A DNA stretch of 64,000 nt from NCBI GenBank assembly GCA_964343575.1, contig CAYFJV010000002.1, forward strand, positions 395,809 to 459,808, in the 5' to 3' direction. The notes beneath the pieces are model-generated. The model was not told where the DNA came from and did no database searches. It saw only the letters and a list, made by a program, of their open reading frames with translations. The translations under genes were made by a program, and so were the position numbers. Below, piece by piece: positions 13,708 to 54,128 of the stretch (its first letter is position 1; the number at the start of each line of letters is the position of its first letter). Origin of the DNA: an uncultured Methanosarcinales archaeon (GTDB taxonomy: Archaea > Nanobdellota > Nanobdellia > Woesearchaeales > GW2011-AR9).

Positions 13708-13817
13708 TGGGGCTGCAGGGATTTGAACCCTGAACACCTAGATTTCAAAAACATTCACAAAAATTAGCGAATGCGCCTACTTCAGTCTAGTGCTCTTCCA
13801 GATTGAGCTACAGCCCC
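13708..13817 (-). tRNA. tRNA-Phe (anticodon GAA) with an intron of about 36 nt at the canonical 37/38 position
   Basis: Manual fold: acceptor GGGGCTG/CAGCCCC, D arm GCTC/GAGC, anticodon stem CTAGA/TCTAG, loop CU-GAA-G, T arm CAGGG-TTCAAAT-CCCTG, discriminator A. 43 nt lie between the anticodon-stem strands, which equals 7 loop nt plus about 36 intron nt. Confidence 0.65.
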
Positions 13818-23465: not shown

Positions 23466-24473
23466 ATGAGGAAAATTTCACTATTATTACTGGTTGTACT
23501 TCTAGCGGCGACTTTACTGTTAAGCGGCTGTCTTAATTACAAGGCTTATGATGTTCCGGAGGAGGAAACAACAGAAGAAGACCAGGATCTTTTGGCAGAA
23601 ATTGCAGAGATTGAGCGGCAACTTGAAGAAAATGATCTAGTGAGTGATACTGAAGAGCTTACTGTTGTTGAGGAAGAAGTAGCACTTCCTGATTTTGGCG
23701 AAGAAAGTGCAGAAACTATCATTATTGAAGTTGATGAAAGTGATCTTGTTAAACTGAACCATGTGATTATTGATCCGGATAACGATCATATCGAATACGC
23801 TTTCTTGCCGCCCTTAAGTTCTCTTGGGGTTTGGCAAACAAACTATGGTGATGCGGGAGAGTATTATTCTACACTTACTGCAAGTGATGGGGTGCACACT
23901 ACTGAGCAAGAACTTTTACTTGTGGTAAACAGGGTGAATGTTGCTCCTGAGCTTGACGGTGTTCGAGATATGACTTATCGTGAAGGAGACCAAATTACTT
24001 TTGATCCAATCGTGAGTGATCCAAACAAAGATGCAGTGAGCATTACTGTTTCTGAGCCGCTTTCTGAAGGAGTTTGGCTGACAGATCACACTAGCGCAGG
24101 AGAATATGAAATCATTGTTACTGCAAGTGATGGTGAGTTAAGCACAGAAGAGACTTTCTTCTTGACTATTCAGGATGTGAATGTACTTCCAACAGTTGAA
24201 GGTTTAGATCGAGAAGTGCGGATCATGGAAGGAGAGACTGTTGAGCTTAGCCCAAGCATTGAAGATCTTGATGGTGATTACCTTAGTGTCCGCATTAGTG
24301 AACCAGTAGGAGATGATGGTATCTGGGAGACTGGCTTTACTGACCATGGAACTTATGATGTAACTATCACTGTAGATGATGGTAAAGATGTGGTGCGAGA
24401 GGTAGTGACTGTTATCGTAGAAGATATCAACATGCCGCCACAGATCATCGATGTCTCTCTTGCTTTAGAGTAG
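23466..24473 (+). CDS. surface lipoprotein-like protein with about 3 dystroglycan-type cadherin-like (CADG/He_PIG-like) repeats
   Basis: Signal peptide with an LSGC lipobox-like motif. Repeats of about 90 aa: V/I-DPD.D...Y.F....GxW.T.Y.DAGEY...TASDG......VNV.P. Confidence 0.65.
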   Translation: MRKISLLLLVVLLAATLLLSGCLNYKAYDVPEEETTEEDQDLLAEIAEIERQLEENDLVSDTEELTVVEEEVALPDFGEESAETIIIEVDESDLVKLNHVIIDPDNDHIEYAFLPPLSSLGVWQTNYGDAGEYYSTLTASDGVHTTEQELLLVVNRVNVAPELDGVRDMTYREGDQITFDPIVSDPNKDAVSITVSEPLSEGVWLTDHTSAGEYEIIVTASDGELSTEETFFLTIQDVNVLPTVEGLDREVRIMEGETVELSPSIEDLDGDYLSVRISEPVGDDGIWETGFTDHGTYDVTITVDDGKDVVREVVTVIVEDINMPPQIIDVSLALE

Positions 24474-24596
24474 ATGTATCAGTTGATGTATCTTAGAAGT
24501 ATTTTTCTTTTTTTTATCTTTATATCATAGATGTGAGCAACAAGCAGAATTAAAAGGGGATGATGGATAATTCACCTAGAGGAGAATTCGAAAACC

Positions 24597-26969
24597 ATGA
24601 AAAAAACACTTACACTCATCATCCTTTTACTCCTTGGCTGCGCCCTTCTTTCTAGCAGCATTTTGGCAGTAAAGACTTTCACTGTACAAGAAACTGACGA
24701 GCTTGACTTAATGCCAGAGGCAATTGATCCTGATGGAGATCAAGTAGTTTATTATTTCCCTCCGCCTTTTGATGATGAAGGAGTTTGGGAAACTGGTTTT
24801 GAAGATGCTGGGGAGTATCTGATTGACATTACTGCAAGTGATGGTCAAGAGCAGGATGTAGAAACTGTTAAAATAATTGTAACTAATAAGAACCAAGCCC
24901 CGACCTTTAGTGAGAGTAGTATTACTGTGCAAGAAGGAGATTTAGTTGATCTTACTGAATACATTGTTGATCCAGATGAAGATATTCTTGACTTTGACTT
25001 TGAAGGGCCTTTTGATCAAGGAGGACAGTGGCAAACTACTTTTGATGATGCTGGTCGCTATGTTATTGATGTTGTTGCTGATGATGGAGAGATAATTGTT
25101 GAGGATCGTTTTGAGGTTCTAGTTGAAAATGTTAACCAAGCTCCTGTAATTGAGGGTCTTTTTAGTGAAGATGATGAGTACGTAATCTACCTTAGCGAAG
25201 GAGATTTGTTTAGTTTTGATATTGATGTTGTCGATTATGATGGTGATGTGCTCTCTATTATCTGGGACATCGGTGGTATTTTAGTTGGGGATGGAGAGGC
25301 AAGTATCGTTGAATTGGGCTATGATAGTGCTGGAGAACACATTCTTACTGTTCGCATAAGTGATGGACAAGAAGAAGTTGTCAAGGAGTGGCGTCTTATC
25401 ATTGCGGATACCAATCGAGCACCAAGTGTTGGTGATCAAGAACTTACTGTGTATGAAACGGAAGTTGTTAGGGTAGTTGATCTTCCGAGTACTGATATTG
25501 ATGGAGATGCACTTAGTTATAGTTTTGAGGCGCCCCTTACTAGTGAAGGAGATTGGACAACAAATTATGAAAATGCGGGAAGTTATACTGTGCTAGGGAC
25601 TGTGAGTGATGGAGAGTTAAGCTCAACTTTTGAAATCTCTATTGAAGTGATTGATGTTGATCGCGCCCCTGAAATTTATGGCACTGAGCGAATTGAACTT
25701 GCTGAGAGCCAAGAACTTCTTTGGGGTTTACATGCAAGTGATCCTGATGGTGATGAAGTGAGTTTTGAGCTAAGTGGTCTTCCTGATGATGCTGTCTTTG
25801 ATGACAAGGATAACACTGTGAGTTGGGTTCCAAGCTATGATCATGTCGTTAGGAGTGAGAACTTCTTTTCAAATTTTTTGAATGCAATCAGGGTGGAGAA
25901 CTTTCTTTTTGGGAAAGAGAAAGCTGTGGTTGAGATTCGTGCTTGTGGTAAAGAACTTTGTAGCAGCAGAGAAGTGGAACTTGTAGTGAGTAATACCAAT
26001 CGAGCTCCAAGCGTGACTGAAGTGTATAACCAAGAAATAAATGAGAATGAGGAGATTACACTCTTTGTTGAAGGAAGTGATCCTGATGGAGATGTTTTGC
26101 GCTATACTTTTAGTGAACCATTGGGTCTTCGAACAGGATATTGGCAAACAAGTTATGAAGATGCAGGCGAGCATGTTGTGTATGTGACTGCAAGTGATGG
26201 TTTTGCAAGCAGTACTGAAGAAGTAATTATTACTGTGAATAATATTAATAGGTTGCCGAGTATTTCAGTTCCAGATGAGAAAATTCAAGTAAATGAAGGG
26301 GAGGCATTTAGTTTTACAGTAGAAGCCTTTGATCCAGATGGAGATTATTTAGAAATTGTGGCGAACAATCTTCCAGTAGGTGCATCTTTTGTTGATAATG
26401 TTTTTAGTTGGCAAGCAAGCTATGATACGGTTGAGAACAGAAGTACAAGTTTTTGGAACGGATTGGTGAGTCATACTCCTTACACAAATAAGAAGTTGAG
26501 TCAGGACATGGCTACAGAGTGGATTGAGTTTAGTGTGAGTGATGGTGAGTTTAGCGCAGTAGTTCCTGTGGAAATCCAAGTGAAAAATGTGAATCGTCTT
26601 CCTGTAATTCATGAAGCACTTCCAAGTAATGGTGCGGTTCTTAATGCTCAAGTGCAAGGAGATGCGCTTATCTTTAGTGTAGAAGCAGACGATCTTGACC
26701 ATGATGAGCTTACTTACACTTGGTCTTTTGGTGGTGGTTTTGACCTGACTAAGGTTAAAGGAGAAGATGCTACTAGTATTAGTCGGGTTTTTAGCACTGC
26801 TGGAGAGAAAACGGTGAAAGTAAAAGTAAGTGATGGAAGAAATAGTGCAAAGTATAAGTGGACCATTGATGCTGATGGAAACGGTGGTTATACTGTTGTT
26901 ACTACGCAACCGGTCGTTACCCCTGCGCCTTTTACTTATCGAATCTTTACTATTGAAAATTGGAAGTAG
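24597..26969 (+). CDS. large cell-surface protein with about 8 cadherin-like (CADG-type) repeats; putative adhesin
   Basis: Signal peptide; many repeats with DPDGD.L.Y.F, G.W.T.Y.DAG.Y.V.VTASDG and VNRAP/TNRAP motifs; 790 aa. Confidence 0.7.
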   Translation: MKKTLTLIILLLLGCALLSSSILAVKTFTVQETDELDLMPEAIDPDGDQVVYYFPPPFDDEGVWETGFEDAGEYLIDITASDGQEQDVETVKIIVTNKNQAPTFSESSITVQEGDLVDLTEYIVDPDEDILDFDFEGPFDQGGQWQTTFDDAGRYVIDVVADDGEIIVEDRFEVLVENVNQAPVIEGLFSEDDEYVIYLSEGDLFSFDIDVVDYDGDVLSIIWDIGGILVGDGEASIVELGYDSAGEHILTVRISDGQEEVVKEWRLIIADTNRAPSVGDQELTVYETEVVRVVDLPSTDIDGDALSYSFEAPLTSEGDWTTNYENAGSYTVLGTVSDGELSSTFEISIEVIDVDRAPEIYGTERIELAESQELLWGLHASDPDGDEVSFELSGLPDDAVFDDKDNTVSWVPSYDHVVRSENFFSNFLNAIRVENFLFGKEKAVVEIRACGKELCSSREVELVVSNTNRAPSVTEVYNQEINENEEITLFVEGSDPDGDVLRYTFSEPLGLRTGYWQTSYEDAGEHVVYVTASDGFASSTEEVIITVNNINRLPSISVPDEKIQVNEGEAFSFTVEAFDPDGDYLEIVANNLPVGASFVDNVFSWQASYDTVENRSTSFWNGLVSHTPYTNKKLSQDMATEWIEFSVSDGEFSAVVPVEIQVKNVNRLPVIHEALPSNGAVLNAQVQGDALIFSVEADDLDHDELTYTWSFGGGFDLTKVKGEDATSISRVFSTAGEKTVKVKVSDGRNSAKYKWTIDADGNGGYTVVTTQPVVTPAPFTYRIFTIENWK

Positions 26970-42997: not shown

Positions 42998-43300
42998 TCA
43001 AAATTTTTCTTTTCCAATCCATTTTACAAAGAGATTGTAAAGAGTTGCTCCAACTATTCCTGTGATGAAACCAAATGTTGCTGCAATGAGCGGCATCCCA
43101 AGAAGAGCTCCAAAAGCAAGCACTGTGCCTTCACTTAAGCCGGGTGTTTCTGTAGAAATGAGCCATCCGAGACTTACAAATAGATCAATAAAAAATCCTC
43201 CAAATGAGTATATGACTCCTGCAAGGAGCCCAAGGAGTGCAAAGATAAGGGCTTGGAACTTTGCGTAATCGAGAATGTTTATTTTAGAATTCTTTTTCAT
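42998..43300 (-). CDS. small hypothetical membrane protein (3 TM)
   Basis: 100-aa hydrophobic ORF. Confidence 0.45.
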   Translation of the reverse strand: MKKNSKINILDYAKFQALIFALLGLLAGVIYSFGGFFIDLFVSLGWLISTETPGLSEGTVLAFGALLGMPLIAATFGFITGIVGATLYNLFVKWIGKEKF

Positions 43301-43365
43301 TTTGCTTGGCGGGTAGTTGCTTGATGTTTAAAGTTGTTGTTATCCGATTGTAAGCATTAATTTGT

Positions 43366-43719
43366 TCATTCTCTTCTTAGAATCTTCTCCATAGCCTTTC
43401 CTTTAGCTAACTCATCAATAAGCTTATCCAAATAGCGAATCTCTCGCATTGTTTCTTCTTCAATTTCCTCTATTCGAATTCCACAAACTACGCCTTTAAT
43501 CAAATTTCTTTTGGGATTTAACTTTGGAGCTTTTGCAAAGAAGGTTTCAAAATCTGTTTTCTTTTCTAATGCTATCTCTAGTTGTTTTTGAGTGTAACCA
43601 GTTAACCAGCGAATGATCTTGTCAACTTCTGCTTTAGTCCTTCCTTTTTTCTCTGCTTTAGTGATGTAGTGGGGATAGACACTAGCAAAACTCATTGAAT
43701 AAATTCTGTGTTTTTTCAT
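43366..43719 (-). CDS. conserved hypothetical protein, DUF2200-like
   Basis: [30 protein letters not shown] ... [12 protein letters not shown] ... [15 protein letters not shown] pattern recalled from the DUF2200 family. Confidence 0.45.
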
Positions 43720-43843: not shown

Positions 43844-43907
43844 GGCATAACGATGTTATATTCTGGACTTCATGTTCGGAGCAATCTGAGCATAGCGAAG
43901 ATTGAAG
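43844..43907 (+). repeat. repeat element copy A (degenerate): ATAACGATGTTAT box present, hairpin decayed
   Basis: GGCATAACGATGTTATA followed by a decayed stem and a ...GCATAGCGAAGATTGAAG tail homologous to the other copies. Confidence 0.6.
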
Positions 43908-44027
43908 TATGACTTAGAGAAAAAGCTTTTTGCGAATATATTATAAGTTGTCTAATTAAAATGAATTGAAATATTTTTGCTACTTGTGAATGGATAAATT
44001 TATAATTGGAATTAATACCCAACCAGT

Positions 44028-44597
44028 ATGTCAAAATTATATCGTTTAGAAAATGGGGTCATTGAGATAATTGATGGTAATATTGCTGATTATGTTGGAG
44101 TAGAATCTTTAGTTTGTCCCACAACCCCAGGTTTGTTGATTGGAAATGTAGGAACGACTCGTGCCATAAAGGACAGGGCAGGTAGAGAATTTTTGGAAGA
44201 TGTCGATGAATTGCGCAGAAGAATAGGGTCGGCTCATCCCCAAGATGCATACGTGGTTAAACCAGGAAACATTCCAATTGATCGGATAGTTTTATCTGTA
44301 TGTGGATATGATCACAGAACCCCTTCAAGTGGAGTGTCATCTAATCCAGACATGGTACAGGGGGCAACAATGAATGCGTTACGGGTAGCACACGAAGCTG
44401 GTCTCAAGTCAATCGGATTCTCAGCACTAGGAACTGGAAACGGTGGAGTTTCCTTAGATGATGGCATTTCAAGAATGTTACATGAGTTTGGGAAACATTT
44501 ATTGGGAAAAACTTCAATGGAGAAACTTGGACTAATTCTTTATGGTAGTAGGGCATATTCAGTTGCACAGAAACATGCAGATGCGATGCTGACATAA
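44028..44597 (+). CDS. macro domain protein (ADP-ribose binding or processing)
   Basis: N-terminal I.IIDGNIADY..VESLVCPTTPGLLIGNVGTTRAIKDRAG and a later SIGFSALGTGNGGVS correspond to the macro-domain Gly-rich and catalytic loops. Confidence 0.55.
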   Translation: MSKLYRLENGVIEIIDGNIADYVGVESLVCPTTPGLLIGNVGTTRAIKDRAGREFLEDVDELRRRIGSAHPQDAYVVKPGNIPIDRIVLSVCGYDHRTPSSGVSSNPDMVQGATMNALRVAHEAGLKSIGFSALGTGNGGVSLDDGISRMLHEFGKHLLGKTSMEKLGLILYGSRAYSVAQKHADAMLT

Positions 44598-44636
44598 TGC
44601 CGTCCAACTAAAAACTTTTTCTCAAGTAATAATCCC

Positions 44637-44705
44637 ACTTAACGATGTTATGCCCCCTGGACTTTATGTCCAGGTCGAGGCGCAGCCGAGAAGTTAGAAG
44701 TTGGT
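44637..44705 (+). repeat. repeat element copy B (type 1)
   Basis: CTTAACGATGTTATG, hairpin CCTGGAC-TTTAT-GTCCAGG, tail TCGAGGCGCAGCCGAGAAGTTAGAAGTTGG. Confidence 0.8.
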
Positions 44706-44727
44706 AATAGTTAACTATAAGTGCACG

Positions 44728-45504
44728 CTATTTAGTCATTACAAAAATTTTGCAAGGTACGTTAAATTGAATGTCTTCTTTATGTTCTTGGAATTTTAGA
44801 GATTTTCTTAATATTTTAGGAAATCTTTTTCTAATGAATTCATTTAGGTAACGTAGTTTTTCTTTGTCATTGTGAAGTTCAGATTCTAATATCTTCTTAG
44901 AAGAAAATCTGTAGTCTATAGTATGAAATTCTTTGATTTTAGTAAAGTTTGCTTTTTTCATGGTTTCCAAAAATTCATCTTCTCTAAAGAAGTATCTTTT
45001 TCTTATAAGCATTTCAAAACCAGCAAGTTCGTCTTTCTTTCTGATAATATCTTGAAATAACATTTGATTTTCACCATTAAACATTATATTCCAAATAACT
45101 AACTTGCCATTTGGTTTTAAAATTCTAAATACTTCTTTAGAAATTTTTAATTGTTCATTTTTGGATACTTCATGTAAACCCATTTTAATGACTACTTTAT
45201 CAAAAAATTCATTTTCATAATTTGATTTATGGAGAGATTCAACGACAAAATGATCTTTTGCAAGTTTTGGAAGATTTTCTCTTGCTCTTTTTATCTGAAC
45301 TTCACTCTTATCTAAAAGAAAAAGATTGACAGCATTTTCTTTCTCTAAAATTCCCTTGCCTACCGCACCATAACCGCACATGGCGTCAAGAATTGTTTCA
45401 TTTGGTTTGGGATCTATTGCTTCAATTAATTTAGCCCAATCGTCTGGTTTTATACTATGTATCTGTTCATATGAAACAATCCTTATATCATATCCATGCG
45501 CCAT
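44728..45504 (-). CDS. class I SAM-dependent methyltransferase
   Basis: Motif I ILDAMCGYGAVG, post I LLDKS, motif IV-like LKPNGKLVIWN. Confidence 0.7.
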   Translation of the reverse strand: MAHGYDIRIVSYEQIHSIKPDDWAKLIEAIDPKPNETILDAMCGYGAVGKGILEKENAVNLFLLDKSEVQIKRARENLPKLAKDHFVVESLHKSNYENEFFDKVVIKMGLHEVSKNEQLKISKEVFRILKPNGKLVIWNIMFNGENQMLFQDIIRKKDELAGFEMLIRKRYFFREDEFLETMKKANFTKIKEFHTIDYRFSSKKILESELHNDKEKLRYLNEFIRKRFPKILRKSLKFQEHKEDIQFNVPCKIFVMTK

Positions 45505-45572
45505 TATTTGATTAAAATTTTTGTAACTTTAAAAAGCTTAGCGTGCACTACATACTACCAACTTCTAATTGA

Positions 45573-45622
45573 GCTTAACGACGTTATGCTTTCTGCGAAG
45601 CAGATCGAGCAAAGTGAGAAGT
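45573..45622 (+). repeat. repeat element copy C (variant with a short GAA-loop hairpin)
   Basis: GCTTAACGACGTTATG, hairpin TCTGC-GAA-GCAGA, tail TCGAGCAAAGTGAGAAGTT. Confidence 0.7.
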
Positions 45623-45707
45623 TTTCTTACTGTATTTGCCAACTAATTAATAACTGCTTTAGCAGACAAAATATGCGTAGCATGGGGGGAGTTCCAAATA
45701 ATTAATA

Positions 45708-46439
45708 TTAGTAATTAGTACAAAAATCTATGAATGCTCTTCCTAATGGAGTTAACCTTCCGGAGACAATACGAAAACCCATTGAAGATGTCATTGTTCC
45801 AAATATGCTTTTATCTGTATTAAATAATCCCATCTGATAGATTTCTCCATATGCGGATTTGATCATATCTAAATCAATCCCAGGTAGAGCCGCTTGAAAA
45901 ACTTTTCCAATTGCAGCCATTTGAACTGGATCTTTATCTAAATTATGAAACTCAAAATAAGCATCTGGATTATTAGATATAGAAATAATTCTTAAGTGTA
46001 GATCACTTAAATTGTTAACTAGATGTAAAAAATATTCTTTTTGCTCACTTTTTAGATTATATCTTAAAGAATTTATGATTATTCCTTTGTAACAGAATAT
46101 TTTTTGTTTTTGGTAATTTGATAAGACACCTCTTATAGATTCTTCAAAAATAAATGCAAATTCTTCTGTTTTTATATAATCAACATTTGTAGAATTAATC
46201 TGTTGGTGGTGTTCTTCAAGTTTAATTGTCAAATCTCTAATAAAATTATGGAGGCGCTTCTCTTTTTTTTTAGGAATGTAATCTCCAATTAATGAAGATA
46301 TTGGACCACCAATTAGTGGGATTGCAGAAAGGCTCGCTTTAATTACATTTACAAAATGATCTCTTGCTGGAGTGTGATCTAATGATGGCTTTATACTAAA
46401 TTCTACACCTTTAACAATTTCAACTTTATTTTCATTCAT
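45708..46439 (-). CDS. hypothetical protein
   Basis: 243-aa ORF, overlaps the start of the downstream gene by 4 bp (operon). Confidence 0.5.
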   Translation of the reverse strand: MNENKVEIVKGVEFSIKPSLDHTPARDHFVNVIKASLSAIPLIGGPISSLIGDYIPKKKEKRLHNFIRDLTIKLEEHHQQINSTNVDYIKTEEFAFIFEESIRGVLSNYQKQKIFCYKGIIINSLRYNLKSEQKEYFLHLVNNLSDLHLRIISISNNPDAYFEFHNLDKDPVQMAAIGKVFQAALPGIDLDMIKSAYGEIYQMGLFNTDKSIFGTMTSSMGFRIVSGRLTPLGRAFIDFCTNY

Positions 46440-46798
46440 TTTCTTTCTTCACGATAAAGCCAAACCCCTACTATTGTTAAGAAAAGGCTTGCGATGTACC
46501 AGATAATATAGGCCCAGTGGAATTGAGCTGAAAAGAGAATTGGCAATGAAATTCCGATGATCAATGAAAGAATCCCTGCCCAAACTAAAACTAATGGCAT
46601 ACCCCCTTTGTCATGTACTTTTACTGTTTCAGAAGCAATTACTTTTGTAAATTTTCCTAATTCAGCCATTGCAGATGATTCTTGGCTTCTTTCATCATTT
46701 TGACATTCCATGCATAAGGGTAAATTAAAATTTTTCTTTGAGAATTTGAAAACTTTTTCAGAGATATTTTTCTTACACTTGTTACAATATAACACCAT
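46436..46798 (-). CDS. zinc-ribbon plus 2-TM small membrane protein
   Basis: CNKC...CMEC four-Cys N-terminus followed by 2 hydrophobic helices. Confidence 0.5.
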   Translation of the reverse strand: MVLYCNKCKKNISEKVFKFSKKNFNLPLCMECQNDERSQESSAMAELGKFTKVIASETVKVHDKGGMPLVLVWAGILSLIIGISLPILFSAQFHWAYIIWYIASLFLTIVGVWLYREERK

Positions 46799-46898
46799 GA
46801 TCTAGTTATGTAACTAATCTTTATTAAATATTATCATTCTACAGGAACTCCCCTCATTTTTAAAAGTTGGCAAATACTTTTTACAGTAAGAAAATTAA

Positions 46899-46971
46899 GC
46901 ATAACGATGTTATGTCCCCCAGACTTTACGTCTGGGTCGAGGAGCGTAGCGACGAGAAGTTGAGAGATGAG
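46899..46971 (+). repeat. repeat element copy D (type 1)
   Basis: GCATAACGATGTTATG, hairpin CCCAGAC-TTTAC-GTCTGGG, tail TCGAGGAGCGTAGCGACGAGAAGTTGAGAG. Confidence 0.8.
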
Positions 46972-47431
46972 CGACCAAGAAGCCTCTCATTTTCAGCACG
47001 GGAAAAGATTTGCGGAAACACGCACAGAATTTAGCAAAGATCTTCATTGATTATTTTTTGTTTTTTTTGTTGTTTTATTTTAAAAAAAATGATCCTTCTG
47101 AAGATGCGAAATTGTTTCCTACAAATCAGTTTTTGTCGTCGTAGAAAAGTTAAATTTCTTTGAAAAATCATGCTTATCAAAAGGCAAAAAATCCACAAAA
47201 TTTTAATGCAAATTTTCAAAATTATCGAGCATAAAAACCTCAAAAAGTTTCTTATGATGCGCAGAATAATGCAGAAAATTTTGATGAGAAAAGTGGATTT
47301 TTTGCACAAGAATTGTTTAATGATTTTTCAAGACAAAAAGAAAATTCATCGACGACAAAATTCCAGAAAAGTGCTGAAAATGATGCAGAAAAAGGCTTCC
47401 CATTTACATAAAAAGCTCATCTCTCAATTGG

Positions 47432-47503
47432 ACATAACGATGTTAAGCTTCGGGGGCTTTACGCCCCCGCAAGGAGCTTTAGCGACGCAGAGTTTTTTGA
47501 GAC
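47432..47503 (+). repeat. repeat element copy E (type 2)
   Basis: ACATAACGATGTTAAG, hairpin CGGGGGC-TTTAC-GCCCCCG, GCAAGG, tail ...GCAGAGTTTTTTGAGAC. Confidence 0.8.
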
Positions 47504-47513
47504 ATATAGAAAG

Positions 47514-48269
47514 TTATTTTTTAGCCTGACTCCATAATAAATTGAAGAACACTTTGTATGTTTGAGCAAAGTTTTCGTCTTTAATTAATAAGCCGTAAGG
47601 TTCTTTTCCGTAAGTAATAAGGAAAAAGTAATCGTTTAAAACCCCATACTCTGTTTTTGTATTTACATTCATGTATCTTACTTCGGTAAGAGGCATTTTT
47701 TCTCTAATAGGCCCCCATTTCTTTCCAATTTTATTGATTAAGATTTTTAGTTTTACTTTGTCTTTAATTCTTTTCTTGTGAACTACCTCTAAGAAAAATC
47801 CCTCTAATTTGCTGAATGATTCTAATGGTGCAGAAGCAATGAAATATTCATCTCCTGTTTTCCATGAGTTGATAATTTCAGTGTATAATGATTTAATTCC
47901 TCTAATTCCTGAAAAATATTTGAAGTCACTTAATTTAGATATTCCACTTGGCTTTACTTTTAGTTTAGAAATGAAATCTAAAAGTTGATCTTTTTCCTGT
48001 TCAATTTGCTTCTCTTTCTCCACAAATAGATTGGCTAAAGAATCAGGATCAGAAGCACGAAAGACTTTGATGTTATTTACAATCTTAAAATTAACTAAGC
48101 CTTTCTCCGAGAGGCTGTTAAGGATTGTGTAAATCTGAGAGCTTGGAATCTTCGTTCTTTCGCAGATTTTTCCTGTTCGGCTTTCTCCATGTTGTTGGAG
48201 ATCTAAGTAGGTTAAAGCTTCTCTTTCTGATAATCCCGCTGATTTTAAGGCTTCTACATTGTTTTCCAT
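47514..48269 (-). CDS. TrmB-family transcriptional regulator
   Basis: N-terminal winged-HTH (LSEREALTYLDLQQHGESRTGKICERTKIPSSQIYTILNSLSEKGLV) plus a C-terminal TrmB-like domain; 251 aa. Confidence 0.6.
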   Translation of the reverse strand: MENNVEALKSAGLSEREALTYLDLQQHGESRTGKICERTKIPSSQIYTILNSLSEKGLVNFKIVNNIKVFRASDPDSLANLFVEKEKQIEQEKDQLLDFISKLKVKPSGISKLSDFKYFSGIRGIKSLYTEIINSWKTGDEYFIASAPLESFSKLEGFFLEVVHKKRIKDKVKLKILINKIGKKWGPIREKMPLTEVRYMNVNTKTEYGVLNDYFFLITYGKEPYGLLIKDENFAQTYKVFFNLLWSQAKK

Positions 48270-48344
48270 ATTACTACTAATGCAATTAGTAGCGAATATT
48301 TATAAACTTTTCTGTGAATTTTATATTCACTAATTAGTGATAAA

Positions 48345-49370
48345 ATGACTTCGGAAAAGAAAATACCAAAATTGGAATTTACGGAGGAGCGAATAACTTC
48401 TCTTGTAGAGAAATTAGTAGATGATGATACGCTAATTGTAACTGATTCATATGGATTTCCAACTCTGAGCCAACTTGGTAGAACTGCACTTGTTCGTGAT
48501 TGTTATGCTGAAGATGTTGAAGAGATTAAAAGCGGGAATGAGTATTCAAAAGTTCTTGCTGTTGGTGGCTGTACTGCTTTAGATGTTGGAAGGGCCTGTG
48601 CTGTTGGTAAAGAAGTCGTTACAATCCCTACTATTCTTTCTACTTCTTGTATAAGTGTAGATAGAAGTATTATCAAATATCCAGAAGGAAGTAGACTGGA
48701 GAAAACTGTTGCTCCAACGAGAACAATCGTAAGTATTCCTAGTATTGCTGAAACACATATAGCAGATTTGGAAAAATGGTCGCAATCTGGGTTTGGAGAT
48801 TTGTTTGCAAACATAAGCGCTTCTATTGATCTACAATACGAAGTTGGTAATCTTAGTTATGAAGCAGTAAGAAATAATGTTCCAGAATGTTTTGAAGCTC
48901 TTGAGTGGGTAATCAATCAATTTCAAGGTTATGATGAAGATTGCTTGAGAAGATTGGCAACATATTCTCATAATTCATCTTTAATCGTTATAGAAAGAGA
49001 AGATACCAAACTGAGTGCTGCTGGAGAACACAAGCTCTATCATAAAATGATTGACCAGCAAAAGCAGTACAGAGAAGATAGACCAACACATGGTCAATTA
49101 GTTGCTCTTGGAACATTACTTGCTGGAAGAATTTATACAAAACAATCAGGAGAACAAAAACTCTATGAGCAATTAGTTACAGCTTATGAAAAACTAGGTT
49201 TGCCTCTGAGCTATGCTGAACTTCATGATATCGGAATAGAACGAGAGCATATTGTTGATGGTTTGAAAAGCATAGCAGGAAGTAACACTCATTTAGGAGA
49301 TCACTTCGCTCAAGGCGATTATTCTCTCTTAGATAGAGTTTTTGGTGGTGGAAAAAATGAAAAAGTTTGA
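48345..49370 (+). CDS. DHQS-like / iron-containing alcohol dehydrogenase superfamily protein (glycerol-(1-phosphate) dehydrogenase-like)
   Basis: VLAVGGCTALDVGRA (GGG..D..K-type NAD motif) and TIPTILSTSCIS (PTtaS-like) motifs. Confidence 0.55.
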   Translation: MTSEKKIPKLEFTEERITSLVEKLVDDDTLIVTDSYGFPTLSQLGRTALVRDCYAEDVEEIKSGNEYSKVLAVGGCTALDVGRACAVGKEVVTIPTILSTSCISVDRSIIKYPEGSRLEKTVAPTRTIVSIPSIAETHIADLEKWSQSGFGDLFANISASIDLQYEVGNLSYEAVRNNVPECFEALEWVINQFQGYDEDCLRRLATYSHNSSLIVIEREDTKLSAAGEHKLYHKMIDQQKQYREDRPTHGQLVALGTLLAGRIYTKQSGEQKLYEQLVTAYEKLGLPLSYAELHDIGIEREHIVDGLKSIAGSNTHLGDHFAQGDYSLLDRVFGGGKNEKV

Positions 49371-50250
49371 GCATTTTCCACTAGAGAGCATAGATTCTGT
49401 TTTGGCAGAGATAAAACTAGATGATTATGAGCAAGCAGTTTCTGATATTTGTAATCAAATTAGTGAATACTACCAAAGACTTCCAGAGTTTGATGGAAAA
49501 AAACCAAAATTAATAATTGGATTATCTGGTGGAATTGATTCTACTATTGTAAGTTATTTGGCAACAAGAGCAGTAGGAACAGAAAATGTAATTACTGTTA
49601 ATATGCCTGCTTATGATGGAGATGAAAGCGTAGAGAAATCAAACTTAGTGAGTAGAATTTTAGGGACTGAACATTATTCAATTCCAATTAATTCAATCGT
49701 TGAAGCTGAAGTAGATAATATTAGCAAAGATTTCCCAATTGATTCAAATACTGAAACAGGAAAAATCAGAAGAGGCAATTTAGCATCAAGAGCAAGAGTA
49801 GCTGTACTTTATGATATTGCTAGAGAAGTAAATGGAAAGATTCTTGGAACAGGAAACAGAACAGAATTTGTGCAGGGCTATGCTGCTAAATGGGGAACTC
49901 CTATTTCATTTGATTTTGGAGTTTTGGATGATTTGTATAAAGTAGATGTTTATGCAATAGCCGAAGTTTTAGATGTTCCGCAAGAAATTATTGACGCTGT
50001 TCCAACTACTGGTTATTACAAAGGACAAAGCCATGAAGAAGAATTAGGAGCAACACTTGAAGAGCAAGATGTAGCAGCATATTTGCTTTTTGAAAAAGGC
50101 ATGAGTAAAGAAGCAATTGTTAAGGAATTTGGAGCTTCTGCTAATTATTTAGATTCAATGCTTCAGAGATATTCAAGAAGTGTAGATAAAAGAGTAATAA
50201 GACAGGAACATGTAACTCTTAGAAATTTTGGTGGTGAAAATGTTCAGTAA
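49342..50250 (+). CDS. nadE: NH3-dependent NAD+ synthetase (PP-loop ATP pyrophosphatase)
   Basis: PP-loop LSGGIDSTIV; the rest collinear with NadE; start overlaps the upstream gene. Confidence 0.8.
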   Translation: MVVEKMKKFEHFPLESIDSVLAEIKLDDYEQAVSDICNQISEYYQRLPEFDGKKPKLIIGLSGGIDSTIVSYLATRAVGTENVITVNMPAYDGDESVEKSNLVSRILGTEHYSIPINSIVEAEVDNISKDFPIDSNTETGKIRRGNLASRARVAVLYDIAREVNGKILGTGNRTEFVQGYAAKWGTPISFDFGVLDDLYKVDVYAIAEVLDVPQEIIDAVPTTGYYKGQSHEEELGATLEEQDVAAYLLFEKGMSKEAIVKEFGASANYLDSMLQRYSRSVDKRVIRQEHVTLRNFGGENVQ

Positions 50251-51175
50251 TTACTCTAAAGCATTAGTGATTGGAGCAGGAAGCGGAAGAGATATTGCTT
50301 CATCTGTTCTGATAACTGAAAAATTAAGAGAACAGGGGATTGATGTAGATTTAGCAGGTTTTCTGACACCATGGGCTTTGCATGAATTTGATGGAGAATT
50401 GGAAAAAACTGTAAATAAGTCATCTAAGCCAAGCAGAAAATTTATTGCTACACAAAAAGAGGTTTCTTTAGATTCATATTTTGAGCCAGAATTGCCCGAG
50501 ATAAATGAGGAATTAGGTTTGGGTATTGGCGAGATATATTTGTTTTCATTACAGCATGGAACAGAAAGCTTAAGAGAAGAATTAGAGGGATTAGTTAGAC
50601 AAAGAGATTATGATTTAATTGTTGCTGTTGATGTTGGAGGAGATATTCTTGCACATAGGCGAGATTTGGCTTCTGTTTATACTCCAATTGTTGATCTTAC
50701 TTGTTTAGAAGTATTAGCAGATTTGAAAACAACTGCTGACAAATATTTGACAGTTGTTGCTCCTGGAGTTGATGGAGAGATTCCAAGCCAGAGATTAGCT
50801 GAAATAATTGGTAATGAAAGAATTTTGAGAAGAGAACAATTAAACCCAGAAAGCAGAAATTATCAGACTTTTGTTCAAGTTTATGATGAAATTAATAGAA
50901 GAACAAAATCATCTAGTCATACAGGAGATGTAATTAGAAAGATAGTAGAGGGAAAATCAGATTTTACGGAGGAGTATAAAAGAAATGGAGTTTCATTTAC
51001 TGTTAAGTTAGATAAAGAATTAGCAAGTGGAATTTATTATTTTGATTTAGAAGCTGTTAAATCTCAGCGAAGGAGTGTTGGTGTTAGTTATGAAAATATT
51101 TCAGAAGCTCATAGGTTAATGAAGGAAATGGGGGCCAGCGGAACAGAAGTTGATTTAACGTATGTTCCAAGATAG
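50228..51175 (+). CDS. hypothetical protein, third gene of the DHQS-like/NadE operon
   Basis: 315-aa ORF whose start overlaps the nadE stop; LVIGAGSGRD and VAVDVGGD Gly-rich loops. Confidence 0.5.
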   Translation: MVVKMFSNYSKALVIGAGSGRDIASSVLITEKLREQGIDVDLAGFLTPWALHEFDGELEKTVNKSSKPSRKFIATQKEVSLDSYFEPELPEINEELGLGIGEIYLFSLQHGTESLREELEGLVRQRDYDLIVAVDVGGDILAHRRDLASVYTPIVDLTCLEVLADLKTTADKYLTVVAPGVDGEIPSQRLAEIIGNERILRREQLNPESRNYQTFVQVYDEINRRTKSSSHTGDVIRKIVEGKSDFTEEYKRNGVSFTVKLDKELASGIYYFDLEAVKSQRRSVGVSYENISEAHRLMKEMGASGTEVDLTYVPR

Positions 51176-51261
51176 TAATTAGTTCAAAGGAGTATGGGGT
51201 TTTAGTTAAAGGAGTCAGGCTCTTCGCAGAAGGTAATACTGTTTATGTCTCAAAAAATTAA

Positions 51262-51339
51262 GCTTAACGATGTTATGTGCCCATGACTTTATGTCATGGT
51301 GCGTAGCGTTAGCGGAGCAAGTTGGATTCTCATGTTGAG
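51262..51339 (+). repeat. repeat element copy F (type 1)
   Basis: GCTTAACGATGTTATG, hairpin CCATGAC-TTTAT-GTCATGG, tail TGCGTAGCGTTAGCGGAGCAAGTTGGATTCTCATG. Confidence 0.8.
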
Positions 51340-51395
51340 CGGAGGGTCGCCATTGTAGAAAAGCTTTTAAGTTTCAAACTTTTTGATTATTTAAA

Positions 51396-52019
51396 ATGAA
51401 ATTTTATTTATCATCATACAAACTTGGAGAAAAAGTTGATAAGCTTAAAGAGATGATGCCAACTGGTAAAAAGCTTGGTTATATTCCTAATGCTTTAGAT
51501 TTTTCTGGAGCTGATCCTGCACGAAGAGAACAATCAATTAAGAAAGATGTAGACGAATTAAAGAGTCTTGGTTTTGATGTAGAAGTAATTGATTTGCAAG
51601 ATTATTTTGGAAAAAATGGTGAATTAAAAAGAAAATTAGACCAATTAGGAGGAGTATTTGTTAGAGGTGGAAATACTTTTGTTTTGCGCCAAGCAATGAA
51701 ACTAAGTGGTCTTGATGAAGTTCTTAAAGGCATGAAAGATAGAGATGATTTTCTTTATTCAGGATATAGTGCAGGAATTTGTGTTTTAGCTCCAGATTTA
51801 CACTCACTTCAAATTGTTGATGATCCGAATGATACACCATATGAAGGATTAGAAAAAGTTATTTTTGAAGGATTAGGAATATTAGATTATATGATTTTAC
51901 CACATTATAAGTCAGATCATCCAGAGTCTGCTGATATAGATAAGGAAGTTGAATATTGTAAACAGCACGATGTGAAGTTTAAGACTCTGCGAGATGGTGA
52001 AGTCATAATAATTGAATAG
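51396..52019 (+). CDS. pepE: peptidase S51 family (peptidase E / alpha-aspartyl dipeptidase-like)
   Basis: VFVRGGNTFVL...GYSAGICV (catalytic Ser in the GxSAG context) pattern of S51 peptidases. Confidence 0.65.
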   Translation: MKFYLSSYKLGEKVDKLKEMMPTGKKLGYIPNALDFSGADPARREQSIKKDVDELKSLGFDVEVIDLQDYFGKNGELKRKLDQLGGVFVRGGNTFVLRQAMKLSGLDEVLKGMKDRDDFLYSGYSAGICVLAPDLHSLQIVDDPNDTPYEGLEKVIFEGLGILDYMILPHYKSDHPESADIDKEVEYCKQHDVKFKTLRDGEVIIIE

Positions 52020-52087
52020 ATGGCGACCCGATTAGGTTCTTAGAGTTTAGCTTTAGCGTACTTCTAATTACATGAGAATCCAATTGC

Positions 52088-52162
52088 ACATAACGATGTT
52101 AAGTTTCGGAGGGTTTATCCCTCCGCAAGGTTAACGTAGTTAACCGCAGAGTTGAATTTGAG
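52088..52162 (+). repeat. repeat element copy G (type 2)
   Basis: ACATAACGATGTTAAG, hairpin CGGAGGG-TTTAT-CCCTCCG, GCAAGG, second hairpin GGTTAAC-GTA-GTTAACC, tail GCAGAGTTGAATTTGAG. Confidence 0.8.
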
Positions 52163-52266
52163 TTTTCCTATTAATCCTGCTTTAGCAGACATACGTTTAG
52201 GGGCTTTCCAAACACATTAATTTAAGGGGCTTTGGTTTTCATCATTATTTAGGAGTAATTTTATAA

Positions 52267-53013
52267 ATGGCTTGTTTTTTCTTTATTATTATGGATTTAA
52301 GAACAATAGCAGACAGATTTGTAGAAATTGGAGAAAGATTCCCTGGGCCATATATTGATTCAGGTATGCCATGTTTTGGTAGAGATTTCACTGGAATTTC
52401 TGCAAATTTGGGAGCAGGAGAAGTATATAATACTCAAGATTCTGCTTACCAATTAGTCTTATCAATTTCTATGGCAGATCATCCTGTTATCGCTGATGTT
52501 CTTGGATTACCCAAATATGATGGTGATGATGAATCTATTGCTCGTGTTGTTGGAAGAATGACTGAAGAAAAAATTCTTGATGGGGTGAGGATTTTAGATT
52601 TGGGTTGTGGATTAATTCCAACATTTGCACGATCTGCAAGAAGATTAGGAGCAGATGTTTACACCGTTGATGTAATTTTGCCTACTGCTTTTGAATATTC
52701 CAGAGAACTTTTTCCAGAAGATGCAAGAGATGCTGAACAAAAAGATCACTTTGCAATTGATTTAAACCAAAGAAATGCAGGTAAAAAAATTGCTAAGAAG
52801 TTTGGTTCTGATTTTGATTTAGTAACTTCAGCATATATTGAAGAAGGAGCACATTTTGGTTGTGGAATTGAAGCACATTTTTATGGTGGTTCAGGTTTTG
52901 CAAAACAATTTCTAGGACAAAATGGTGTTTATTTTGGGACACATGCTTCTGGAATATTAGTTCAAGGTAATCAGTTTGTGAAAACAGAGTTAGGGAAAGT
53001 GACATCTGATTAA
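52267..53013 (+). CDS. putative class I SAM-dependent methyltransferase
   Basis: Motif I ILDLGCGLIPTFARSARRLGADVYTVD. Confidence 0.5.
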   Translation: MACFFFIIMDLRTIADRFVEIGERFPGPYIDSGMPCFGRDFTGISANLGAGEVYNTQDSAYQLVLSISMADHPVIADVLGLPKYDGDDESIARVVGRMTEEKILDGVRILDLGCGLIPTFARSARRLGADVYTVDVILPTAFEYSRELFPEDARDAEQKDHFAIDLNQRNAGKKIAKKFGSDFDLVTSAYIEEGAHFGCGIEAHFYGGSGFAKQFLGQNGVYFGTHASGILVQGNQFVKTELGKVTSD

Positions 53014-53279
53014 ACCAAAGCCCCCACATAGTTTTTTTCATTCTAGTTTTTATCATCAAGGAAAGCCCCGTCATCTTAAAACTCAAATTCAATTAAACTT
53101 AACTCGTTATATCTAAACTTTTAGGATTTGGCCCCCTTCGTAGTCGAATTTCTTCGTTTTAAACAGCCCATAAAGTGTTATACTGACTTCTCTTTTTGGT
53201 AGTAAATATATAATGTACCCAATATCTCACAAGACAATCTTGGTTCCTGTTTAAATAGAAGCTCATTACATGAGCATCT

Positions 53280-54128
53280 ATGGATGTTGCAGGAATAATT
53301 CAAAGAAAAGCACTTCTTTTAGGTTTGAGACCAAACACTATTAAAACATATACTGCTATTGTACAAAGATTTTTGAGAAAATACAAGTTAAATGTTTGGG
53401 AAGTAACTACAAAAGATATCGAAAAACACTTACTTGTTTTACTGGAGAAAAATAAATCTGGGAGCTCAGTTAATGTACATCTTAATGCCTTAAAATTCTT
53501 CTTTGAGAAGTGTTTAGGTAAAAGAGTAACGCTTAATATGAAGTTCACAAAGCAAAGAAGAAAGTTGCCTACATTTCTCACACAAGAAGAGATAATCTTT
53601 TTTCTTGAGGTAATTGAAAACAGAAAACATAAGCTAATGATTTCTTTACTTTACTCTGCGGGTTTACGGGTTAGCGAATTGCTGGATTTGAAAGTTAGAG
53701 ATCTAGAGCTTTCTAAGAATCATGGTTGGGTGCGTGATGGGAAAGGGGGGAAAGAGAGGCCATTCATCATTGCTGAGAGGATCAGATTAGATCTAGAGAA
53801 TTGGTTGTTTGAACAAAGACTTAACGATTGTGATTATTTGTTTGGTAACAAGGGGAGAAAGATGAGTACACAAACAGTAAGGAAGATTATTCATAACACA
53901 AAGAAGAAAGCAAGAATTAAGAAGAATATTGGCCCACATAGTTTAAGACACTCTTTTGCAACACATTTCTTAGAGCAAGGCAATGCTCTAACTGAATTGC
54001 AACCCCTACTTGGACATAGCAGAATTGAGACAACTCTTGTTTATTCGCATATGGCATCGCCACAATTGTTAAAGATGCAAAGCCCATTTGACAATCTAGA
54101 GATTAATAATGAGAAGAGATTGAAATGA
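53280..54128 (+). CDS. tyrosine recombinase / integrase (XerC/XerD/XerA family)
   Basis: Box I SAGLRVSELLDLKVRDL, box II HSLRHSFATHFLEQG...LLGHSRIETTLVYSHM with R-H-R-Y catalytic residues; 282 aa. Confidence 0.85.
   Translation: MDVAGIIQRKALLLGLRPNTIKTYTAIVQRFLRKYKLNVWEVTTKDIEKHLLVLLEKNKSGSSVNVHLNALKFFFEKCLGKRVTLNMKFTKQRRKLPTFLTQEEIIFFLEVIENRKHKLMISLLYSAGLRVSELLDLKVRDLELSKNHGWVRDGKGGKERPFIIAERIRLDLENWLFEQRLNDCDYLFGNKGRKMSTQTVRKIIHNTKKKARIKKNIGPHSLRHSFATHFLEQGNALTELQPLLGHSRIETTLVYSHMASPQLLKMQSPFDNLEINNEKRLK

Follow-up and report, generated by a model that had tools for sequence, protein, structure and literature searches.

A two-gene cassette in an apparently undescribed, Xer-linked integron-like array of a Woesearchaeota-type archaeon

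Two small overlapping genes stand between inverted repeats on the minus strand of a DPANN (Woesearchaeota-type) archaeal contig, CAYFJV010000002.1, and the locus raises a question in two parts: what kind of element do the repeats delimit, and what do its genes do? The window analysed here is the whole 64,000-nucleotide stretch of that contig around the genes. A preliminary description took the pair for a membrane sensor and its effector, of abortive-infection or toxin type, in a mobile or defence island. Our proposal is that positions 45583-46905 make up a single mobile gene cassette, complete in itself, within an integron-like array, that a XerA-like recombinase encoded at the array end most likely recombines the cassettes by a crossover within TAAC-GAT-GTTA, and that the most likely role of the cargo is abortive-infection-type virus defence. 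We give this combined explanation a probability of roughly 0.6. Of its parts, the architecture of the array, the limits of its cassettes, their movement between arrays and the link with the recombinase gene are shown; the acting enzyme, the state of the DNA substrate and the defence function are inferred.

The island at 43.8-53.1 kb is a cassette array in which neighbouring cassettes are separated by a core, AATT-N5-TAAC-GAT-GTTA-N5, and a hairpin. Its GC content is 31-35%, compared with ~40% elsewhere, and the low-GC span runs roughly from 43 to 54 kb. The motif TAACGAYGTTAWG occurs in seven copies in the island, all in one orientation, and the layout of the cores is constant: AATT-N5-TAAC-GAT-GTTA-N5 is followed by a G+C-rich hairpin with a TTTAY loop and then by a linker that ends in GAGAAGTT or a similar sequence. 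Cores at 45576 and 46902 flank the gene pair, which is indeed alone between the two elements that had been called C and D. Taken whole, 43848-54128 holds eight arrayed cassettes and, at their end, a terminal dif-like site and the gene for the XerA-like recombinase.

43848-52101, plus strand: the array of seven cores, with TAAC starting at 43848, 44640, 45576, 46902, 47435, 51265 and 52091
45576-45586, plus strand: core junction TAACGACGTTA between the methyltransferase cassette and the two-gene cassette; the crossover would lie within it, judging by cassettes shared between arrays
46902-46912, plus strand: core junction TAACGATGTTA between the two-gene cassette and the next, 533-bp cassette

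The limits of a cassette can be followed from the pairing of its ends. The sequence to the right of one core is the reverse complement of the sequence to the left of the next, and outside the core it is specific to that interval. Perfect complementarity between the 9 nt that follow the start GAT and the 9 nt that precede the end GAT is seen in four of the six window cassettes (examples are GTTATGTCC/GGACATAAC, GTTAAGCTT/AAGCTTAAC and GTTATGTGC/GCACATAAC), and the two sides of one core complement each other less well than do the two ends of one cassette. Among arrays fetched from other genomes, all five positions of N5 are complementary between the cassette ends in 42 of 67 cassettes, compared with 2 of 103 when the two sides of the same junction are paired. 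The outer arms are also cassette-specific, with 69% of cassettes lying above the 95th percentile of mismatched-cassette controls.

The same cassette is found in different arrays at 89-99% identity (92% for L056/L075, 99% for L062/L073; also L014/L049 and others). When shared cassettes are compared base by base, homology starts at TAAC-GAT and stops at TAAC-G, whereas the N5 on the flanks and the hairpin that follows are different; the crossover therefore lies within TAAC-GAT-GTTA. The cassettes are mobile independently of one another, and each carries the hairpin on its GTTA side. The mobile context claimed earlier for the gene pair is thus supported by shared cassettes whose homology ends at the cores. 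A crossover at the conserved AG|TT to the right of the hairpin was ruled out, because the hairpin moves together with the cassette to its right and homology ends at TAAC-G. In L075 (minus strand), the junction that aligns with position 3540 of L056 has TAAC-GGTT-GTTATG in place of TAAC-GAT-GTTA, a spacer varying by one nucleotide.

Why, then, should two genes be flanked by inverted repeats? The repeats were originally given as 85 bp long. Complementary arms exist, but they are gapped and unequal, 113 nt on the left and 62 nt on the right, rather than a continuous 85 bp. Five colinear blocks are complementary between the left end (45583-45695) and the right end (46844-46905): GTTATGCTT/AAGCATAAC (9 nt), AGTT/AATT (4 nt, with one G.T pair), and TTTTCTTACTGTA (13 nt), TTTGCCAACT (10 nt) and ATGGGGGGAGTTCC (13/14), each of these three with its complement. 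On the left side, a 13-nt hairpin, a linker and a 37-nt insertion come between the blocks.

45583-45695, plus strand: left cassette end, with the stem half GTTATGCTT at 45583-45591 and the hairpin TCTGCGAAGCAGA at 45592-45604
Up to 45623, plus strand: linker of the left end, its last letters being GAGAAGTT
45622-45634, 45635-45644 and 45682-45695, plus strand: left arm blocks
45654-45665, plus strand: small hairpin CTGCTTTAGCAG within the 37-nt left insertion
46844-46905, plus strand: right cassette end, complementary to the left end, with arm blocks at 46844-46857, 46865-46874 and 46882-46894
46893-46905, plus strand: within the right end, the conserved AATT at 46893-46896 and the terminal stem half AAGCATAAC at 46897-46905

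A crude local alignment of the 180-nt flanks scores 58 against a shuffle maximum of 60 and so does not rise above the shuffles. When the two ends of the cassette are joined and folded as single-stranded DNA, the result is -45.7 kcal/mol with z = -8.5; the junction in its array form has z = -2.0. The same holds in five of the six window cassettes, whose own ends fold at -41 to -46 kcal/mol once joined (z -6.5 to -8.8); the sixth (43848 to 44640) gives -23.3 kcal/mol and z -2.2, and array junctions as they stand give z from +0.8 to -2.0. The predicted fold of the joined ends consists of a long arm stem, a 9-bp tip stem closed by GAT, and a side hairpin. This side hairpin, to the right of the core, covaries: over 76 distinct cores, each of its seven base pairs is formed in 88-95%, and three or four kinds of Watson-Crick pair occur at each position.

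The arms are thus interpreted as the two halves of one palindromic recombination site that is split at its centre by integration, and inverted repeats would flank the genes because integration cuts the cassette's own palindrome at that point. In the free circular cassette, the adjoining ends would form an imperfect palindrome of ~175 nt centred on GAT. For the two-gene cassette, the predicted circular joint is ...TACAGTAAGAAAATTAAGCATAAC-GAT-GTTATGCTTTCTGCGAAGCAGA..., with AAGCATAAC-GAT-GTTATGCTT as its inner part. The preliminary description had singled out these arms as the longest in the island; by span they are, but all six cassettes tested are armed, and the inverted repeats do not belong to this gene module in particular, since every cassette in the array carries its own split site. 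This account of cassettes and recombination sites is, in our judgment, very probably correct. Pairing of the arms at the mRNA level was judged unlikely given the mixed gene orientation and the position of the putative promoter. The left arms of the two-gene cassette (45654-45700) and of the last cassette (52177-52215) share CTGCTTTAGCAGACA...GGGG..TTCCAAA, a sub-element that includes a small hairpin and 15 identical nucleotides.

The enzyme that would act on these sites is encoded just beyond the last cassette.

53092-53117, plus strand: terminal dif-like site, ATTAAACTTAA-CTCG-TTATATCTAAA
53280-54128, plus strand: gene for a XerA-like tyrosine recombinase of 282 residues (Pfam Phage_integrase and SAM_4), ~160 bp past the terminal site

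The best model for the recombinase is NF040815 recomb_XerA_Arch of NCBIfam, matched over positions 11-259 of 263 with E = 3.5e-62 and 210.3 bits (cut-off 220). Against the integron-integrase model TIGR02249 it reaches 178 bits, in two stretches, where the cut-off is 265, and against PRK15417 it reaches 115, where the cut-off is 435. Eight other loci have homologs with 41-52% identity at this end of an array and in this orientation, which makes nine loci with the window, and similar terminal sites, ..ATAAC-TCT/TGT-TTATAT.., lie upstream of several of these homologs. The arms of the core and of the terminal site match the dif pattern ATT-N5-TAA / TTA-N5. Furthermore, the right arm of the terminal site, TTATATCTAAA, is identical to that of the Pyrococcus abyssi dif site, ATTGGATATAA-TCGGCC-TTATATCTAAA (PMC2958812). 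The left half of the terminal site is complementary to the start of the last cassette, and the site retains its own spacer after cassette insertion. This retention suggests that strands are exchanged on the TAAC side only, in the manner of integron attI x attC recombination or of CTX phage integration. A metagenome scan with the recombinase yielded six relatives of 26-37% identity with no adjoining array; five of the loci lack a core, and in L101 the recombinase match at 8001-8720 is flanked by two isolated core-like matches ~11 kb apart.

The array is not peculiar to this contig. A one-genome-per-species collection was scanned for AATTNNNCWTAACGATGTTAWG, which gave 81 stretches, 65 of them from metagenome-assembled genomes (MAGs) labelled as archaeal, nearly all Woesearchaeota, Nanoarchaeota and uncultured Methanosarcinales. 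Many of the archaeal stretches have 2-7 cores in a row. Around 17 chance matches to the pattern are expected, an estimate consistent with the 16 single matches in unrelated bacteria, and the core pattern has zero matches in viral contigs. The contig L039 is binned as Candidatus Saccharibacteria, and over 2180 bp it matches a stretch of the 704-kb Woesearchaeota contig L077 with 100% identity; its placement is probably a binning error in the public MAG. A search of the literature found no prior description of such arrays in DPANN archaea or Woesearchaeota, or of XerA-linked cassettes, and the core motif was not found in the supplements of Ghaly et al. (PMC9668308), files that may contain no sequences. 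The two-gene cassette appears to be one member of a widespread and apparently undescribed Xer-linked, integron-like array system in DPANN archaea.

What the cassette carries would be an operon of two translationally coupled genes with a putative promoter of its own. The predicted products are a small zinc-ribbon protein anchored in the membrane and a helical, cytoplasmic one that is a distant relative of Abi-alpha.

46436-46798, minus strand: gene for a 120-residue protein with a CxxC..CxxC zinc-ribbon-like N-terminus and two C-terminal transmembrane (TM) helices (from the list of open reading frames, ORFs)
45708-46439, minus strand: gene for a 243-residue all-helical protein of a large unannotated family distantly similar to Abi-alpha, PF14337 (from the ORF list and profile search)
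46820-46831, minus strand: TATA-box-like ATATTTAATAAA, 22-34 nt upstream of the first ATG, within the cassette and outside the arm (read from the sequence)

The features first described for the two genes are borne out. The 4-bp overlap is the plus-strand TCAT at 46436-46439, which reads ATGA on the coding strand and joins the stop of the 120-residue gene to the start of the 243-residue gene. The four-Cys ribbon and two TM helices of the upstream protein correspond to Cys residues at 5, 8, 29 and 32 and to hydrophobic segments at ~65-91 and 94-116 (Kyte-Doolittle at least 1.6). The 243-residue protein has, by hydropathy, no segment above the transmembrane threshold. The TATA-like box is a possible promoter of the operon itself, from which the mRNA would be leaderless.

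Neither protein matches a family in Pfam, PADLOC or NCBIfam. The 120-residue protein has a single homolog, P0012 (71% identity), which is followed in L008/L009 by an unrelated protein. The 243-residue protein has few close homologs, and a profile search gathers 3562 cluster representatives at E<=1e-3. Sub-threshold matches to Pfam Abi_alpha (E<0.01) occur in 21 of 99 diverse members of this family; the best E-value is 1.4e-6, the best score among those inspected is 27.2 bits against a gathering threshold of 29, and the matches span profile positions 4-101 or 3-148 of 196. Structure prediction had been proposed as a check on the pair. AlphaFold2 (AF2) models of the 243-residue protein had a pLDDT of 68 at first and of 86 with a second, deeper alignment; the latter is a confident all-helical model, but it has no significant Foldseek match in PDB or BFVD. 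PDB sequence and profile searches yielded nothing useful, a tblastn search of plasmids and phages for true Abi_alpha sequences returned one hypothetical protein or nothing, and no relatives of the 243-residue family were found in viral contigs with the patterns used.

Abi-alpha itself (PF14337, formerly DUF4393), represented by EF2833 of Enterococcus faecalis prophage 6, has been shown experimentally to be a single-gene abortive-infection protein that causes premature lysis (PMC6356687). It is 272 residues long, compared with 243 here. As with the 243-residue family, its gene mostly stands by itself, in mobile or defence contexts, and the 21 family members match the N-terminal half to two-thirds of its profile. 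The window protein differs in its archaeal host and in its coupling to a membrane zinc-ribbon protein, and EF2833 is the one protein for which the abortive-infection phenotype is known.

The neighbours of the homologs also bear on function. A homolog of 73% identity is the last gene of an operon with a split Dsr1, PDC-S13 and a Cas4-like nuclease, and its gene overlaps the nuclease gene by 4 bp. Homologs of 70-71% identity lie downstream of a Type IIG restriction-modification enzyme and a protein of 477-485 residues. A homolog of 44% identity (P0007) is a single-gene cassette in a canonical integron that also carries BrnT/BrnA pairs, and more distant family members are stand-alone genes adjoining Type I or IIG restriction-modification genes. 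Thus, co-occurrence with defence genes, which the preliminary description proposed to look for, is found for the 243-residue homologs (Dsr1, PDC-S13, Cas4-like and Type IIG neighbours), but the pair is not kept. A conserved sensor and effector pair, as first imagined, does not emerge, for each gene is differently partnered elsewhere and the 243-residue family also stands alone. Nor is the setting a defence island: array cargo is general and includes regulators, methyltransferases, PIN/RHH toxin-antitoxin pairs, metabolic genes and more. The abortive-infection reading has indirect support from the sub-threshold Abi_alpha matches, from the defence-gene neighbours of the 70-73% homologs and from the homolog in a canonical integron. 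That the Abi-alpha-like protein is constant and the upstream gene variable points to a defence role with the membrane protein as an exchangeable partner, whose place would be taken elsewhere by a Cas4-like nuclease or a 480-residue protein. The membrane protein may possibly be an effector, or simply co-cargo. Taken by itself, the defence role of the cargo is tentative, and we rate it at somewhat less than an even chance.

Several observations weigh against the explanation offered here. Neither an excised circle nor an empty site has been observed, and the same is true of recombination activity. Only linkage assigns the recombinase to the array, and its XerA score falls just under the NCBI cut-off (210 vs 220 bits). 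Known dif sites have 6 nt between the ends of the TAA and TTA arms, where the cores have 5 nt and the terminal site 4 nt. As for the cargo, its functional mix makes array membership uninformative on defence. The window's 243-residue protein has no Abi_alpha match at E<=0.1, all family matches are under the Pfam threshold, and its model has no significant structural neighbour by Foldseek in PDB or BFVD. PADLOC gives zero matches for either protein, with scattered single matches among the 99 family members, and one distant family member adjoins superoxide dismutase and GHMP kinase genes rather than defence genes. Finally, the gene pairing is not conserved: the 120-residue homolog and the 243-residue family each have other partners or stand alone.

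The most likely alternative keeps the cassette and changes the cargo. The two genes could be independent of each other, or they could form, for example, a regulatory unit in which a membrane-tethered zinc-ribbon "anti-factor" holds a cytoplasmic helical regulator. The changing partners and the zero matches to defence models agree with this, regulators are numerous in cassette arrays, and parts of the model weakly resemble winged-helix or activator domains (MotA, BlaI, Nur) in Foldseek. These resemblances, with probability <=0.8 and E>1, are nevertheless not significant; close and distant homologs repeatedly adjoin restriction-modification, Dsr1 and Cas4-like genes; and the Abi_alpha signal, though sub-threshold, is consistent across 21 of 99 members. 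We consider a non-defence cargo unlikely, though still worth serious attention.

Chromosomal integrons offer a precedent for another role, because toxin-antitoxin (TA) cassettes stabilise the large ones. In an addiction module of this kind, the small upstream protein would neutralise a toxic downstream one, or the reverse, and the pair would stabilise the array. Two small overlapping genes in one cassette have the right form, PIN/RHH pairs are frequent array cargo, BrnT/BrnA pairs accompany homolog P0007 in its integron, and both genes swap partners as TA components do. Neither protein, however, resembles any TA family in Pfam, NCBIfam or PADLOC, and the 243-residue family usually stands alone, which is impossible for a toxin. 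To our knowledge, no antitoxin type is a 2-TM zinc-ribbon protein. Such a module is therefore improbable.

The two further alternatives concern the array rather than its cargo. Cassettes that start with GTTA-N5 and end with N5'-TAAC have true terminal inverted repeats, and exactly 3 nt separate neighbours, as would be expected of transposon-like elements if an unlinked transposase targeted TAAC-GAT-GTTA and duplicated GAT, the XerA-like gene being a neighbouring housekeeping dimer resolvase. Yet no transposase gene is seen in the eight window cassettes, and transposases do not figure among the most frequent families when 125 cassette proteins of other arrays are considered. In nine loci, the recombinase gene accompanies the array, always at one and the same end and with one orientation, and both the core and the terminal site resemble Xer sites. 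In addition, TCG, not GAT, follows the last cassette, and a simple 3-bp duplication would not yield TCG. A transposon-like origin is accordingly very improbable.

That the array is an ordinary canonical archaeal integron whose repeats are attC sites (Ghaly et al. 2022, PMC9668308) is scarcely tenable, for although small cassettes adjoin a tyrosine recombinase, the core holds R''-like (RYYYAAC) and R'-like (GTTRRRY) boxes and integrons are reported in Nanoarchaeota (PMC9668308), the two halves of the palindrome lie on either side of the genes and not side by side at a single end of the cassette, the crossover falls between R''-like and R'-like boxes only 3 nt apart, the 282-residue recombinase is best matched by XerA and is far under the integron-integrase cut-offs, gene orientation is mixed (82 vs 52), and the contrast locus L005 shows true attC. 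R''...R' pairs 50-140 nt apart within one junction were also sought, and the core flanks proved non-complementary except for AATT/AGTT.

The cassette array nevertheless has much in common with integrons. Both line up individually mobile cassettes of ~0.3-4 kb (median ~1 kb) beside a tyrosine recombinase, both have a special terminal site next to the recombinase gene, and in both the cassette sites are defined by imperfect palindromes, specific to each cassette, that contain short conserved boxes (..TAAC / GTTA..). Such palindromes imply recognition of structure rather than sequence, and the substrate may be either folded single-stranded or double-stranded DNA. The cargo is miscellaneous in both and includes TA pairs and methyltransferases; across the arrays, PIN/RHH pairs, methyltransferases and regulators are among the cargo families. 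In integrons, however, the whole attC lies at one cassette end with the crossover at G|TT of R', whereas in the array the cargo comes between the two halves and the crossover is at the palindrome centre. IntI has an additional domain, whereas the array recombinase is Xer-like and appears to be without the IntI-specific insertion; IntI is divergent from its array, whereas the recombinase here is co-oriented and downstream. Integron cassette genes are mostly co-oriented and served by a common promoter, whereas array ORFs are split 82 vs 52 and the two-gene cassette apparently has its own promoter. The array also has an extra conserved, covarying hairpin beside every core. Canonical attC sites and IntI proteins have been described in archaeal integrons (PMC9668308). 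Downstream of the 73%-identity homolog of the 243-residue protein (L002 1400-1640 and 2795-3225; L001 6700-7140), there are attC-like sites of the form GCATTTAAC-GATGTTTTGCCCC...GTTAAATGC. These sites have TAAC-GATGTT in common with the Woesearchaeal core, but, as in the canonical layout, their two boxes pair with each other inside a single junction. In evolutionary terms, they may stand between attC sites and cores.

The array also resembles Xer/dif systems, in its apparently Xer-family recombinase and in arms of the pattern ATT-N5-TAA / TTA-N5. A known Xer site consists of two 11-bp inverted arms and a 6-bp spacer, while the array spacer is 5 nt (cores) or 4 nt (terminal site); moreover, array arms vary between cassettes, are self-complementary within a cassette, and belong to palindromes that reach 60-110 nt beyond the 11-bp arms. 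Integrative mobile elements exploiting Xer (IMEX), such as CTX phage, accumulate in tandem at one site, as the array elements do. A single strand-pair exchange, familiar from CTX phage, is suggested for the array by the differing cassette and terminal spacers. However, IMEX are phages or plasmids, whereas the array elements are small gene cassettes and their core pattern is unmatched in viral contigs. In the pdif modules of Acinetobacter, sites alternate in inverted orientation (C/D, D/C), unlike the seven cores and hairpins of the array, which are all direct.

The cassettes of the array carry, in order, the following cargo.

Up to and including the two-gene cassette: Macro domain; SAM methyltransferase; the two-gene pair
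Beyond the two-gene cassette: empty; a four-gene cassette; peptidase S51; a 248-residue protein
Four-gene cassette: TrmB, a G1P-dehydrogenase-like protein, NAD synthase and DUF1152

The 533-bp cassette (46913-47434) has complete ends and arms without a convincing gene. Its ORFs are a TTG-started one of 92 residues and a low-complexity one of 119 residues that runs across the next core, and it may be empty, decayed, or the carrier of a non-coding element. In the largest cassette (47448-51264, 3.8 kb), a TrmB-family regulator gene is divergent from three overlapping genes, for a glycerol-1-phosphate-dehydrogenase-like Fe-ADH, NAD synthase and DUF1152; it is a small regulated metabolic operon that moves as one cassette. 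At the GC boundary upstream of the DUF2200 gene (43300-43370), the sequence GCTT-GAT-GTTTAAAG could be a decayed outermost array junction whose left half is chromosomal and whose right half comes from a cassette. Rfam and ARAGORN scans of the island gave zero matches that would make the core an RNA gene, such as a tRNA-like or C/D box element. Outside the island, a tRNA gene of 110 nt (13708-13817) scores 59 bits in Rfam and is missed by ARAGORN; an archaeal intron is presumably present in it. This gene, together with the Nre and TrmB proteins encoded in the window, marks the DNA as archaeal. Five diverged copies of a 67-nt unit lie within a long coding region at 23825-26201, set 243 nt apart or at larger and less regular distances, and look like a repeated ~81-residue domain of a large surface protein.

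How DPANN archaea, host-dependent organisms with genomes of ~1 Mb, acquire and shuffle accessory genes is poorly understood. The array itself is more novel than its cargo, whose defence reading is plausible but unproven. On the most far-reaching reading, this would be a Woesearchaeota-type gene-capture platform of which we found no description, an integron analogue built on Xer/dif machinery. A XerA-like enzyme without the IntI domain would move small cassettes in and out through long, centre-cut, cassette-specific palindromes around a dif-like core; the covarying hairpin and the heterologous terminal site would probably set strand and direction through single-strand exchange and replication; and the two-gene cassette would represent a new archaeal Abi-alpha-like branch with swappable partners. 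The odds that all of this holds are about level. If it does, either cassette platforms have more than one origin or intermediate forms connect integrons with Xer systems; the L002-type sites hint at the latter. It would also provide short sequence rules (the core, the self-complementary N5 and the hairpin) for finding cassettes, together with a compact pair of recombinase and site. The archaeal Abi-alpha-like family, which sits in defence islands and integrons and comprises several thousand sequence clusters that lack annotation, is a concrete candidate for a widespread anti-viral gene.

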